Part shown: one piece after another, positions 19,956 to 62,056 of the stretch
How the letters are laid out: each line of letters begins with the position of its first letter
Numbering within the stretch: position 1 is the first letter of the stretch
Assembly: GCF_004010195.1 (NCBI RefSeq)
Contig: NC_057721.1
Span: forward strand, 7,121,244-7,185,243
Length of the DNA: 64,000 bases
Direction: 5' to 3'
Origin: Chiloscyllium plagiosum
Lineage: Eukaryota
Notes under the pieces: generated by a model
What the model was told of the DNA's origin: nothing
Databases searched by the model: none
Seen by the model: the letters and a program-made list of their open reading frames with translations, nothing else
Program-made: the position numbers and the translations under genes

Positions 19956-20103
19956 CTATATCAAAAGCATAATGCTAAGAATTAATCATATCCAAGTCTT
20001 CAAAGTTCATTCTCAGCTGTGGGGTGATGTCTTTATCTCTGGTACCAGGCAGGCAACCTTCACAGTTTTCAATTATGGCTGCAGGGCATACTACAATTGG
20101 AAG

Positions 20104-20228
20104 GAGAAAGTGAGGACTGCAGATGCTGGAGATCAGAGCTGAAAATGTGTTGCTGGAAAAGCGCAGCAGGCCAGGCAGCATCCAAGGAACAGGAGAATCG
20201 ACATTTCGGGCATAAGCCCTTCTTCAGG
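20104..20228 (-). mobile_element. 125-bp PLE family B terminal insertion with hammerhead motif and 16-bp TSD
   Basis: ATACTACAATTGGAAG is repeated at 20088-20103 and 20229-20244. The minus strand reads auc-CUGAAGA-A-GGGC-UUAU-GCCC-GAAAU-GUC-gau and ends CTCACTTTCTC. Confidence 0.85.
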
Positions 20229-20879
20229 ATACTACAATTGGAAGCACAGTAACAAGTCTAATTGTTACTGTGAAGTAATCTTCCTGTTCCTGTCCCATTA
20301 CACAAAACATATTGATAGTAACTTGCCTTAAACAGAATAATTCATTAGAAATTAGAACGCTCTTGATTTTTTAAAAAATCATTTACATATATCATAATGA
20401 TGGTAAGAAATCACAAAGTACTTTCCACTTTCTCTGAGGAATCCAGCAACTCAGTACTTTAACAACAGATAATCAAAGAAATACACCATTATAGAACATG
20501 TCAGAATTGATTTGGTAAGTAAATCTGGGAAATCTACATTAATCTATTCTCAAGTTGGTAACTATTTAAGATCATCGTCAAAACAATTAAAGTAAATGTT
20601 TGCAAAATTATTTATTTTTCTAAGCACAGATGGATGAAGTGGATAGCAGACCAAAAACAGTCATGCAAGCAGAATCCACTATAGCTTTTAAAGGAATACA
20701 AGTGGATAAATATTTGAAAAACAAAACTTTGAAAAGGCTATGGAGAAATAGCAGCAAAATGGGAATAAATGGACAACCCATTCAGAGATTAGTGGTACAG
20801 GTAAAATGACCTCCTAGCTGCAAATGCATCTAGAATATCTCTTTATTAAAATAATGAGCAATAATATTTAAAATGGTAC

Positions 20880-20966
20880 CTGGAACCCATGTCAATGGGG
20901 CTGCTACAGCATTACTAGCACTTATCCGATGTGCATATTTAATAAGCTCTTCAGATGAGATGGCAC
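20880..20966 (-). CDS. MED4: MED4 exon 5
   Basis: (G)[28 protein letters not shown]; 87 bp; AG/GT. Confidence 0.97.
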
Positions 20967-21214
20967 CTGCAAAGAAAACAGAATCATAACTCCTTACTGA
21001 TCTGATCTTCAAAAAAAACAGTAAAAATATAGCTACCTAACCAGATAAAAAATGTTGAACTTTGAAAAAAACGTATTTACTCACACAAAAAGACAGAACA
21101 CTAACCCTAACTCTATTGCAGGTCACATTTCAGGAAGGCGCCAGACATCCAAAGCACAATTGATGATGAGTATTATATTATAGTCATCGTGTAGTGAATA
21201 TATACACACACATT

Positions 21215-58002: not shown

Positions 58003-59194
58003 GTATGTAAAGCCCAAAATTGAGGTACTGACTTTCTGGATTGAAAATCCATAGAGAAGCATTGACACATTGATTCTCTGTCTAATGCAGGTCTTTTGAA
58101 GGTGTAATGTTTGGAGAATGTTTCTGATTTCCTGTCTGGTAGATGGTACAGTAATCCATCACGTAGTTCTTGAATTTGACCCTTGCTTAAAATGGCCTTG
58201 ACTTGGTTCTTTGGAATTATCATTAGTCAAATTTGTAGAATAACAAGAGAAAAAGTGAAATTCTAAAGATACAGTGAATGCAGAAATATATTGTTGAAGC
58301 CTCAATAGTTGTGCTATTGTGCTGTTAAGCCAAAAGAAAGATATTTTTTGTGATAGTGGGACTTGTGGTTGTGGGCCTGTACTGTAACAGTTTAGCTGTT
58401 TAATGGTATTTAAAAGTCTCTTAATTCAGTATCTCAATTTAGGTATCAAGGTGGTTGCAATTCTGAGGAAATATTTCGGTTGACTTTGCTATCCACTTAT
58501 TATTCTCCATTCCTTAGTTATTGAACTTGTCTTCTCTCCTCCACTTTTATTCTAGTCAATGGGTTTTATGCTATGCACCTGATGTTGTGTTTTGTGTTAG
58601 AGTACAGGAATTTTTTGGGAAATTAAGTTCCTTACATTTCAGTTACTAAATAAAGGAGAGCAGGAGAAGATTAGGCACGTTGGAAAGTAGAAAATAAGTG
58701 ACACTATCTCCCCCTCCAACCATACCTCCACCACCACAAGAGAAACTGACTTGGGATGTTTATTACCTTGTGGTAAAAGAGCAACTCCATGCAAGGTGAT
58801 TTCTCGTCATGCAAGTTGATAGGCTGTTATTAACTGAAATGGTGAAATTCAGCTTGTATATTGCCTATTGGTTAAACTGTAAATAACTTGATGCCAATAT
58901 ATTTGAAGGAGGAATTTGCTAATTATTTTCTCTTTGCGTTTTATATAGAATGCTCCTTTTTATATCCCGAGGATGCTGCTTGTTGAGACGTACTTGTAAT
59001 ATCAGCTAAATGAGTTACATTTATGTAAATTTGCTTAGGATTAAAATAAAATTAGATGTATAGAGCAGTTTTTAATTTCTGTGGAAGTAGAATCAGACTC
59101 TTTCTTTCTGTAGGATTTTTAAATGAAATTACTGCTCTAAATTAGTTTGTGATAAGGAATCTTCCTCTTCATTTTATAGATGCTCTTGAAAGCA

Positions 59195-61565
59195 ATTTGA
59201 TTTATTGTCCTATGTATCTTAAGTACAATCAAAATTGCAAGCAGATCATACATACAAGGAAATAGATCATGGGGTGTTTGGATAGAGTAAGGCATACAAG
59301 GTTACGGATACACAAGAAGTGTGCAAAGGCAAGATCGGCATTAGATTTGAAATTGGAAGTCCATTCACCAGTCTAATAACAGCAGGGAGAATTTGTATTT
59401 GAATCCGTAGGTACATATGTTCAAGCTTCTGTATCTGCTGTCGGAAAGAAAAGGTTGGAAGAGATTATAACCAGAGTGAGAGGGGTCTTTGAAGTCTTTC
59501 TGCAGCAACGGGAAGTATAGATGGAGGTCATGGAAGCGAGTTTATGAAGTTGAAGGAGTGTACTGTACCTTTTGAGAATGAAAGCTGGCAAGCACTTGTC
59601 ATGTGACTGACTCGCAGTCAGTGTGCTGGAAAATTGAAAAAATGTAACATTTGACTGTAACCTAGATACCTCAGTTGTTTTCACAGCCATTCGAATTTAA
59701 CCAGTTTACATTATGCCCGAAGATACTAAAACCCCATCGAATTTGGATTTTACTGTTTTTGACAACATTGAACTAATGAGATGATCCGATGTTTGGGGTA
59801 TAAAGAAAGCAAGCATTTTGGACAGTTGGCCAGAAAGAGCACCAACTGTCATTGAAAGACTGCTATTCACCACATTCTCTGTCAAAGGTACCTTTTTTAC
59901 ATGAAACATCTTGGCAGCAGAAGACCAAAGATGACCCAGGGAGATCTACAAACCGAGGAAGATTGACATCAGAGATGATGGCCGCTATCTAGTTTTGAAA
60001 ATTAAGTTGCTGTAAATTTAATAGGGGCTTTATTGGATCAGTTTTCAGAGTGGGAGGTAGAGAACAAATCTTTGAGGAGGGAGGGTTAGAGTTGTAAATA
60101 AATGTTGTGTTTTCACTTTGAGTTAAATAATTGTTTTTTTTTGTTAAATAGTGGAATTTGGGTAGTTCTGTCACTCATACTTTAACGGATTATGAGGCGA
60201 GGTGAGCTTTTGTGTGTTTGGTTTAATTAGCAGAAGGGTTTACCACTGTTGTAACAGGATGTTGGCTTTCATGATTGTCTGGGCTGCCTACATACTTTCC
60301 TGTAGTTCCGGTCCTGGGCAGAGCAGTTGGCTGTACCAAGCTGTTAAGCACCCAGTTAGAATGCTTTCTAAAGTGCATCTGTAAAGGTTGCTGAGGGTTC
60401 TTGTGGACGTACAGAATTTCCTAAGCCTCCTGAAGAAGAAGAGGCATTTTTGTACTGCCTTGACTGTCACATCTGCTTTGGAGGTCAGGGGCAGATTGTT
60501 GATAATCAATTATTGTCACTCCAAGGAACTTGACAGTCTCTGCCTTCTCCACTGATGTACGTAAGGGCATATCCTCCATCTTTCTTCCTGAAGTTAATGA
60601 TCAGTTCTTTTGTTTGGTGGACGTTGAGAGAGAGTGTGTTTTAATTTTGCCATGACACCAAGCACTTTTATCTCCTTCCTGTATTTTGACTCATTATTGT
60701 TTGATATCCGGCTTACAATGGTGGTATCGACAGCAAACTTGTAGTTGGGATTTGTGTGAAATTTGGCCCCACAGTCATGTGTGCGGGGAGAACAGTAGGG
60801 TGCTGAAATCCTTGTGGGGCACCAGTGTTGAGTATTTTTGTGGAAGGTGTGCTATTGTCTGTCTTCACTGGTTGCAGTCTGTGGGCCCGAGAGCTGAAGA
60901 TCCAGTTGCAGAGGTCGGAGCTGAGACCTAAGTCTTGGAGTTTTGAGATGGTTGGGATTATAGTGTTGAAGGCAGAGCTGTAGTCTATAATAGGACTCTG
61001 TGGGTATTCTTATTGTCCAGGTATTCTAGGGCTGAGTATAGAGGTAGGGAAATGGCATCTTCTATGGACCTGCTTTGCTGGTAGGCAGATTGCAAGGGTC
61101 AAGGTAGGCCTGGAGGCTAGAGTTGATGTGAGTTACGACTAACGTGTGGAAGCACTTCATGATTATGAAGGTTAAAACCATCAGGCGGTAGTCATTGAGG
61201 CACATTACATGTGTTTTCTTCAGTATTGGGATGATGGTGTCCTTTTTGAAGCAGATGGGGACTTCAGATTGTAGCAAGGAGAGGTTAAAGATGTTAGTGA
61301 ATACTTCTGTCAGCTGGTCCACACAGGATCTGAATGCGTGGCTGGGGACTCCATCTGGGCCAGTTGCTTTCCTCAGGCTTACTACCGAGAAGGCTGATCT
61401 GATGTCTGCAGGAATGACGGAGGGAGCAGGTATATCTGGGGCTGTCAGGGCAGGTGACATCACACTATTGGCGTTCTACTCTAACTGAGCATAAAAAGCA
61501 TTGAACGTATCAGGGAGGGCTATGTTTTTGTCTGCTATTTTGTTCTGCTTCATTTGTATTCCATT
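59195..61565 (-). mobile_element. Rex1/Babar-type LINE fragment interrupted by a solo LTR
   Basis: RKATGPDGVP..DQLTEVFTNIFNLSLLQSEVPICFKK..IIPILKK..CLNDYR..IMKCF and KAVQKCLFFFRRLRKF..LYRCTLESILTGCLTAWY; 3' end near 59195-59530. Confidence 0.8.
59540..60256 (+). mobile_element. Probable solo LTR
   Basis: Starts TTATGAAG..TGTACTGTACCTTT, has TATAAA at ~59800 and AATAAA at ~60096, ends GGGTTTACC..GTAACA. Similar ends to 62057-62709. Confidence 0.6.
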
Positions 61566-61608
61566 ATGTTCTCTAAATGGACTATAAATTGACATCCTAA
61601 TTGGACTC

Positions 61609-61826
61609 TTGGCTTAATAATGTGTTGCTGGAAAAGCGCAGCAGGTCAGGCAGCATCAAAGGAACAGGAGAATCGACGTTTCGGGCATAAGCCCTTCTTC
61701 AGGAATGGCTTTCTTTCAGGCTTATGCCCGAAACGTCGATTCTCCTGTTCCTTTGCTGCCTGACCTCCTGCACTTTTCCAGCAACACATTTTTAAGCTCT
61801 GATCTCCAGCATCTGCACTTTCTCCT
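61609..61826. mobile_element. Fold-back PLE family B insertion with a 15-bp TSD and an intact hammerhead on the minus strand
   Basis: ATCCTAATTGGACTC at 61594-61608 and 61827-61841. The minus strand reads auuc-CUGAAGA(61696-61702)-A-GGGC-UUAU-GCCC-GAAAC-GUC-gauu. Confidence 0.88.
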
Positions 61827-62056
61827 ATCCTAATTGGACTCCCAATGGAATTGGGAATTTGTGTACACATGAACACAAAGCTCTGTTGTGTGATGAAATT
61901 TTAATTTATCATTCATGTAGATTTGGTTTAATTTTTAAATGCGGTTTTTCTTACTGATTTATTCACAAATTACTAGACGATTCCAATTAAATATGCCAGT
62001 GTAGATAATTGATATATAATTTCTTTCAAGACTGTCTTCAGGGATCTTTACAGTAG

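Follow-up and report, generated by a model that had tools for sequence, protein, structure and literature searches.

Hairpin insertions of Penelope-like elements in a 64 kb window of the Chiloscyllium plagiosum genome: one tailed arm, one tail-less arm and a probable two-ended priming mechanism

How can a retroelement insert as a head-to-head hairpin in which one arm regularly stops a few tens of nucleotides short of the other? This question is raised by a 64,000-nucleotide stretch of shark DNA, hereafter the window (Chiloscyllium plagiosum, assembly GCF_004010195.1, contig NC_057721.1, positions 7,121,244 to 7,185,243 of the forward strand), which contains many short insertions of elements that are, on the evidence of their coding and ribozyme motifs, almost certainly Penelope-like elements (PLEs). 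We consider it likely that these insertions were made by endonuclease-containing PLEs through two-ended target-primed reverse transcription, starting at two fixed sites on the element and followed by joining of the two cDNAs.

All counts given below refer to this single window. The element ends were compared with it by BLAST, which yielded 20 loci belonging to four PLE families (A, B, C and D). Two loci, 50831 (ends too degenerate to place) and 41090 (a 24 nt fragment), were dropped before counting; degenerate family D-like remnants at 50816-51000 and 41090-41113 thus lie outside the counts. The 18 scored insertions consist of 11 two-arm hairpins, 5 solo tailed copies and 2 solo tail-less copies. 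Arm boundaries were set by hand from target-site duplications (TSDs) and alignments, so that each offset (the distance between the end of a tail-less arm and the element terminus) holds to within a few bases; in family B the uncertainty is 1-5 nt each, through microhomology with the TSD or extra bases. Ribozyme motifs were located by custom pattern scans, and 5' ends are numbered relative to the ribozyme core. The scored insertions are listed here, with the strand given for each arm in the case of hairpins.

348-471, family A hairpin (358): TSD 348-359/460-471 (10/12 matching); tailed arm minus, internally deleted; tail-less arm about 404-459, plus, offset 32, the turn lying at a palindrome around the predicted ribozyme cleavage site.
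954-1772, plus, family A solo tail-less copy (1684): offset 32; endonuclease-like segment 954-1118, TATAAAT at 1644, ribozyme core at 1684; neither a 5' end nor a TSD found.
20088-20244, minus, family B solo tailed copy (20088): copy 20104-20228; 16 bp TSD; 5' end at core -2.
29032-29187, family D hairpin (29032): 12 bp TSD; tail-less arm on minus, 29044-29127, with its 5' end at core -4, an offset of 35 and a deletion of stem II; tailed arm 29124-29175, plus; the two overlap by 4 nt where they join.
31998-32685, family D hairpin (32010): TSD 11/12; long tail-less arm 32010-32573, minus, offset 34, with endonuclease C-terminus, internal tandem repeat and TATAAAT at 32139 and 32265; tailed arm 32574-32673, which begins just 3' of where cleavage is predicted.
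33844-33996, plus, family D solo tailed copy (33850): copy 33877-33983; TSD 11/13; 5' end at the predicted cleavage site, with about 20 unassigned bases upstream.
34644-34760, plus, family A solo tailed copy, diverged (34644): 5' end between core -3 and +3; no TSD reaching 12 nt.
35128-35315, family B hairpin (35128): 15 bp TSD; tailed arm 35143-35272, minus, 5' end at core -5; tail-less arm 35271-35300, plus, offset 33; 2 nt overlap.
35409-35819, minus, family A solo tailed copy, long (35409): TATAAAT at 35565; no TSD found.
36036-36276, family B hairpin, young (36036): 15 bp TSD; the tailed arm (minus, 36051-36167) terminates in ribozyme stem II, and the tail-less arm (plus, offset 34-36) extends from core -5 to -14 as far as 36261.
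41468-41658, family A hairpin, exceptional (41468): 12 bp TSD; tailed arm 41480-41594, minus, 5' end at core 0; inverted arm 41598-41646, which stops 83 nt short of the terminus; where the arms join, a short templated duplication.
42125-42905, family C hairpin, Poseidon-type (42125): TSD 13/15; tail-less arm about 42140-42521, minus, offset 35-39; tailed arm about 42530-42890, plus, with endonuclease C-terminus.
42324-42449, minus, family B solo tailed copy (42320): nested in the family C arm; 5' end at core -2; no TSD.
46739-46893, family D hairpin (46730): tail-less arm 46739-46838, minus, offset 34, 5' end at core -1; tailed arm plus, internally deleted; no TSD found.
52047-52238, family B hairpin, older type (52047): tail-less arm 52047-52111, minus, offset 34-35, with its 5' end just past the predicted cleavage site on the 3' side; tailed arm 52115-52238, plus, from core -4; no TSD found.
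53747-53865, plus, family D solo tail-less copy (53751): copy 53761-53851; offset 37; TSD 12/14.
54705-56818, family B long hairpin, Neptune-type (54705): 18 bp TSD; tail-less arm 54723-56365, minus, offset 35-40; tailed arm about 56367-56800, plus.
61594-61841, family B hairpin (61594): 15 bp TSD; 3 extra bases, then the tail-less arm (61612-61707, minus, 5' end at core -5, offset 35); tailed arm 61719-61826, plus, from stem II; 11 nt spacer.

The central regularity is the composition of the hairpins. Exactly one arm is tailed in all 11, and in 10 of them the tailed arm is paired with an arm that ends at an internal site, the 32-40 nt tail being present at one end only; if each end chose its site independently at 50:50, such one-of-each pairing would have a probability of about 0.001. 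No symmetric PLE hairpin of the four families appeared when the window was compared with itself by BLAST for inverted pairs. The internal site also works alone, as the solo tail-less copy 53751 with its TSD (12/14) indicates. A preliminary description of this DNA had claimed an inverted arm in seven insertions, and we found it in each of them; in 54705 and 61594, however, about 10 nt or more is missing from within the tail, so that these 3' ends, called complete in that description, are not fully so. It had also placed the family B stop at 30-35 nt from the terminus: the stop is reproducible, but the measured offsets are 33, 36, 34, 40 and 32 nt, with 33-36 nt typical. The same stop extends to the other families (A 32, 32 and 83; D 35, 34, 34 and 37; C 39 nt), although 41468, which had been offered as an example, ends at 83 nt. 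Altogether, 12 of the 13 tail-less ends fall within 32-40 nt, a tightness that was equalled in none of 200,000 uniform simulations.

We then considered whether the second arm could have been copied from the first. In a fold-back or self-priming scheme, the tailed cDNA, or an antisense RNA (PMC3846280), would snap back and be copied until a block about 35 nt short of the end. This proposal was published on the basis of palindromes at inverted junctions (PMC3846280), and in the window the 358 hairpin turns at a natural palindrome, the tailed arm extends further 5' in 4 of the 11 hairpins (358, 35128, 42125 and 52047), and the arms of two of the five family B hairpins (36036 and 52047) have three private variants each in common, those of 36036 differing at only 1 of 83 shared columns. 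However, arm-shared variants fit one RNA, one source locus or later conversion of the arms equally well. Moreover, because a copy cannot hold sequence that its template lacks, fold-back predicts no tail-less arm longer than its tailed partner, whereas the tail-less arm reaches further 5' in seven hairpins (29032, 32010, 36036, 41468, 46730, 54705 and 61594), the excess being about 1.2 kb for 54705 and 460 nt for 32010. Rescuing the scheme would require a later one-sided deletion in each of the seven, and solo tail-less copies exist as well (53751 with a TSD, and 1684). The preliminary description had left two-ended priming and fold-back side by side; since 7 of the 11 tail-less arms hold element sequence missing from the tailed arm, we regard fold-back as unlikely, while two-ended priming fits both the window and the in vitro data on another PLE (PMC11167929).

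The flanking repeats indicate that both arms arrived together. A TSD of at least 12 nt with at most 2 mismatches borders 12 of the 18 insertions (range 12-18 bp). Seven of the eight pairs named previously proved exact over 12-18 bp; the eighth, 42125/42891, is exact over 7 nt only, with 13 of 15 positions matched. Could the arms nevertheless be separate insertions, or the flanking repeats chance or pre-existing duplications? The window is repeat-rich and contains one nested insertion (42320), but a single TSD pair abuts both outer ends in 9 of the 11 hairpins, partner arms always belong to the same family, and the null rates for such repeats are 0.04-0.3% (random boundary pairs match exactly over at least 12 nt in 0.04% of draws and at 10/12 or better in 0.27%). 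We thus hold this explanation to be extremely improbable. The TSDs are mildly AT-rich (114 of 169 bases, versus 60% for the window). The nested family B copy at 42324-42449, which has no TSD, shows a G-run match to its target; because it lies within the family C arm, it must be younger than the enclosing insertion.

Which elements were responsible? The attribution to PLEs in the preliminary description was borne out by several lines of evidence. The long minus arm of 54705, which is the tail-less one, encodes a broken, 5'-truncated reverse transcriptase (RT), followed in the same open reading frame (ORF) by a Cys-rich linker and, C-terminally, by a GIY-YIG endonuclease. It aligns across RT and endonuclease with P0036 and P0043 (tblastn E about 1e-54), which carry RVT_1 and GIY-YIG domains; among its protein matches there was no named PLE reference, all being uncharacterised or misnamed shark or ray proteins. 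A Cys-rich domain between RT and endonuclease defines the Neptune clade (PMC3846280), and such a segment precedes the GIY-YIG motif in 54705 and in its homologues, which fits a Neptune-type assignment of family B. Family C is 77% identical to the shark protein P0056, which has RT and GIY-YIG without a Cys-rich linker; the window copy does not include that region, and the family would be Poseidon-type because of this linker-less relative. Families D and A retain endonuclease remnants, of which only the C-terminal part is present, and appear Neptune-like (D) or probably so (A). For families A, C and D, endonuclease remnants are all that the window holds of the coding region, and Pfam did not detect the degenerate endonuclease frames there. 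The best matches of the window's retroelement proteins come from Chiloscyllium, Rhincodon, Stegostoma and Hemiscyllium. PLE-derived peptides also occur in gene models from sharks and rays that bear the names of unrelated host genes (P0022, P0028, P0030, P0055, P0057 and P0059), which points to either annotation artefacts or exonisation.

All four families also carry a minimal type I hammerhead-like core motif with stem II, stem I being weak in family B. As in PLE minimal hammerheads (PMC4209133), the motif is of minimal type I with a palindromic helix III. Rfam returned no hammerhead family in the window at E values up to 5. Its seven weak matches all lie below the gathering score, and the top three are microRNA-precursor models on two hairpins; PLE hairpin units could thus be mistaken in annotation for microRNA precursors or for miniature inverted-repeat transposable elements (MITEs). 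Within the family D arm, a head-to-tail repeat of about 125-140 nt (32019-32283) holds tandem ribozyme cores at 32107 and 32232, the arrangement needed for a predicted dimeric cleavage.

We next asked where the arms stop on their 5' side. The inversion point had been said to fall often at or beside the hammerhead. The junction is indeed at or beside the ribozyme in 9 of the 11 hairpins, although for the most part it coincides with the 5' edge of the motif and not with the cleavage site. Among the 13 insertions without a long upstream run, seven have their furthest 5' end at core -5 to -1 (20088, 35128, 42320, 52047, 61594, 46730 and 29032); 36036 and 34644 are ambiguous but compatible, 41468 lies at -12 to -14, and 358, 33850 and 53751 stop inside the ribozyme. 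In 200,000 draws, seven of 13 ends within 5 nt arose 633 times with a range of 50 nt, 116 times with 70 nt and never with 150 nt. The cDNAs ending at core -5 to -1 were extended beyond the predicted cleavage site, and so were copied from uncleaved RNA. Four arms do begin within about 3 nt of that site (52047 tail-less, 358 tail-less, 32010 tailed and 33850). In long copies, an initiator (Inr)-type motif with its A at core -4 is found in families B and D and is lacking in C and A; TATAAAT is at -32/-33 in D and at -38/-40 in A, and B and C have no TATA. The nominal chance of a TATA motif in two of four families is 3e-4, for a range picked after seeing the motif. TATA and Inr-like motifs were reported in the pseudo-long terminal repeat (pLTR) of Adineta vaga Pen2a (PMC3846280). 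Altogether this suggests run-off at the pLTR transcription start of an uncleaved RNA, which we infer to be the simplest reading of the 5' stop; RT stalling, a splice junction or a short master RNA are possible alternatives. In Drosophila virilis, the start site lies 46 bp before an intron (PMC2377424), the end of which maps to helix I (PMC4209133); inspected by eye, the junctions in the window had no common exon-like sequence that would indicate a splice-acceptor origin. A cap-derived G was considered at 52047 and set aside as a single, unrepeated case.

The common stop bears on the suggestion, made in the preliminary description, that some mini-hairpins might be mobilised non-autonomously. 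A master hairpin could have given rise to them by amplification; alternatively, the short family B copies could stem from a short master RNA that comprised only the pLTR and began at core -5. Non-autonomous PLE derivatives are described in Chlamys (PMC8557442), and tandem retrozymes are known (bioRxiv 10.64898/2026.07.22.740005). The four young family B insertions (20088, 35128, 36036 and 61594) are all short, with arms 87-100% alike, and the window has no long copy of their subtype. However, the same 5' stop is shared by old and young family B copies and by families D and A, and none of the 11 junctions recurs, as would the single junction of a MITE-like family, although 64 kb is a small sample. 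Non-long terminal repeat retrozymes form head-to-tail tandem arrays (bioRxiv 10.64898/2026.07.22.740005), unlike the single hairpins or solo ends with TSDs seen here. The suggestion thus found no support in the window, and we judge either version of it to be very unlikely.

How, then, would the tail arise? The closest experimental parallel is the Poseidon element of Anolis carolinensis (PAc). In vitro, both target strands are cleaved and extended, and a dimer was predicted; reverse transcription starts at two adjacent internal sites, the tail being the sequence between them, and uncleaved RNA is the dominant substrate (PMC11167929). On our reading, the shark insertions agree with PAc in the priming of both strands, in the two adjacent RT start sites whose distance sets the tail, and in the use of uncleaved RNA. 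However, PAc belongs to Poseidon, whereas families B, D and probably A are Neptune-like; the merely mild AT-richness of the shark TSDs is a further difference. In the portion consulted, the PAc text draws no link from the paired start sites to inverted insertions, nor does it state a one-of-each rule (PMC11167929). Alternatively, the tail could arise when the endonuclease cuts the pLTR of the element's DNA intermediate twice, at positions about 35 nt apart, rather than from two RT starts. An endonuclease-mediated resolution has been suggested (PMC8557442), the D. virilis endonuclease needs tail sequence for cutting (recounted in PMC11167929), and a fixed offset would follow equally. Nevertheless, the anole RT starts coincide in vitro with genomic tail ends (PMC11167929), and such cuts would leave the single 5' stop of the short arms unexplained; we find this route quite unlikely.

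In the two-ended priming scheme that we favour, the GIY-YIG endonuclease would cut both strands about 12-18 nt apart, generating the TSDs seen here in the way that two-strand cutting occurs in vitro in another PLE. One free 3' end would prime at the distal start site, the tail terminus, and the other at the internal site 32-40 nt upstream. The offset and the one-of-each pairing are observed in the window and the two sites were found in vitro, and their assignment to opposite target ends is our interpretation. Both cDNAs would copy the same sense sequence and thus come to lie head to head. Many of them stop at the 5' edge of the ribozyme, which is probably the 5' end of an uncleaved pLTR-promoter transcript. 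Their ends would then be joined through short overlaps, sometimes with small templated insertions, before fill-in; the junctions themselves are visible, and the repair route may be of the end-joining kind. Overlaps of 2-4 nt occur at 35128, 29032 and 36036, and duplications at 41578-41605 (in 41468; 11/12 match) and at 61693-61720 (in 61594; a repeated 6-mer) resemble templated insertions of end joining. A long microhomology once considered at the 54705 junction was discarded, as the tblastn RT homology ends at 56365 and the stretch belongs to the tailed arm. Priming by a single end would yield a solo tailed or solo tail-less copy, and the mini-hairpins would be dead-end products of early termination, each of them independent.

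Several observations weigh against this scheme. The 83 nt offset of 41468 breaks the fixed distance, although its arm stops at a point where element sequence and first TSD bases agree, which is what priming by chance complementarity would give. Six of the 18 insertions (1684, 34644, 35409, 42320, 46730 and 52047) have no detected TSD of at least 12 nt. The four hairpins with longer tailed arms also fit fold-back, and 7 of 11 against a 50:50 expectation (p=0.55) excludes only a strict zero. Arm-internal deletions in three hairpins (358, 29032 and 46730) show that later deletion could have reshaped junctions, and the apex of 36036 could have been lost between short repeats. The junction overlaps are short, come with no null comparison and are unreadable for 54705, 42125 and 32010. 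Finally, the data come from one 64 kb window and from hand-set boundaries.

A comparison with L1 is instructive. In L1 twin priming, the second primer sits at variable positions, and there is hardly any overlap between the two segments. In the shark hairpins, by contrast, the second start is fixed and the same 30-400 nt are copied in both arms, so that this segment was read twice. In L1, both target ends prime, the second primer annealing internally on the same RNA, and the cDNAs anneal by microhomology to give a head-to-head inversion within one TSD (PMC2912911). The shark insertions work like twin priming but are not L1 products: the element carries a GIY-YIG endonuclease, there is no poly(A), and the arms overlap in element coordinates. 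We speculate, and only tentatively, that an RT dimer primes both break ends on a single uncleaved RNA, its start sites being set by a helix between the tail and upstream sequence. The trailing RT would displace the leading cDNA, giving overlapping arms and the rule of one tailed and one tail-less arm, and the 100-220 bp hairpins would represent strong-stop-like run-off at a TATA/Inr promoter start just 5' of the ribozyme. Each family indeed has a potential tail-closing helix of 6-9 bp in which the tail pairs with upstream sequence, its 3' strand running from 25-28 to 16-21 nt from the terminus. By eye, the PAc letters (Supplementary Figure 1 of PMC11167929) contain a comparable 7 bp inverted pair, CAUGGCC/GGCCAUG, around the AC-rich start region. 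With one GU pair allowed, the helix surpassed tail shuffles in 5 of 9 copies (p<0.02), families D and C not being significant, and with Watson-Crick pairs only it did so in 3 of 7 copies (p<0.05); whole-region folding of the 3' ends was no better than shuffles in 7 of 8 copies, 32574 alone reaching z=-3.2. This helix is a lead and not a result. If the dimer model were true, sequence alone would suffice to read from genomic hairpins where transcription starts and how the RT is arranged in any PLE family.

The hairpin architecture itself is already described and would not surprise a PLE specialist. Canonical endonuclease-containing PLEs show an inverted 5'-truncated copy with a 30-40 bp tail, often at one end only (PMC8557442), and the same architecture was reported with 8-10 bp TSDs and an empty site in a study proposing self-priming on an antisense template (PMC3846280). 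In Schistosoma, hammerhead motifs occur in opposite-strand pairs 100-700 bp apart (PMC4209133). The shark insertions resemble Penelope/Poseidon and Neptune elements in their 5' truncation, head-to-head inverted copy, one-end tail, pLTR ribozyme and TSD around the whole unit. They differ from the A. vaga examples (PMC3846280) in their longer TSDs, 12-18 bp, and from canonical elements in that most inserts are 90-220 bp without an ORF; no full partial-tandem unit (pLTR-ORF-pLTR) was found in the window, the only tandem being internal to 32010. Searches of the open-access literature retrieved no explicit twin-priming model for PLEs and no shark PLE paper, and those combining 'Penelope' with hairpin, MITE or non-autonomous returned, as listed, only reviews or surveys. 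The one-of-each rule and the promoter-coincident 5' stop are modest, testable additions, some details of which the PAc figures may already show. Self-priming and endonuclease resolution have both been proposed for the origin of inverted pLTRs, and the PAc study, in its accessible portion, ends before the second-strand steps (PMC11167929); the short, young shark hairpins offer an easy natural dataset for deciding this origin, with countable predictions for spacer ownership, tail pairing and the 5' stop.

Other features of the window deserve brief mention. An assembly gap of 500 N lies at about 18580-19080. An imperfect hairpin at 26870-26975, whose inner stem is near-perfect and whose loop measures 3 nt, is single-copy in the window and outside the four families, with no TSD found, and a short inverted repeat beside a fragment resembling a long interspersed nuclear element (52908-52953) matches none of the families. 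A degenerate, unscored stretch at about 52960-53025 looks by eye like a family B or D end in antisense. Further retroelement remnants, non-PLE by eye, include RVT_1 matches at 37676-38560 (within 37676-39589) and at 2212-2673, though not at 61062-61475. Host exons comprise a NUDIX-domain ORF at 7383-7859 (plus), an acidic Ser-rich C-terminus at about 16997-17110 (minus) and an N-terminal exon at about 40055 (plus). They resemble NUDT15, MED4 and ITM2B, presumably in the usual vertebrate order, and many of the hairpins may therefore be intronic.

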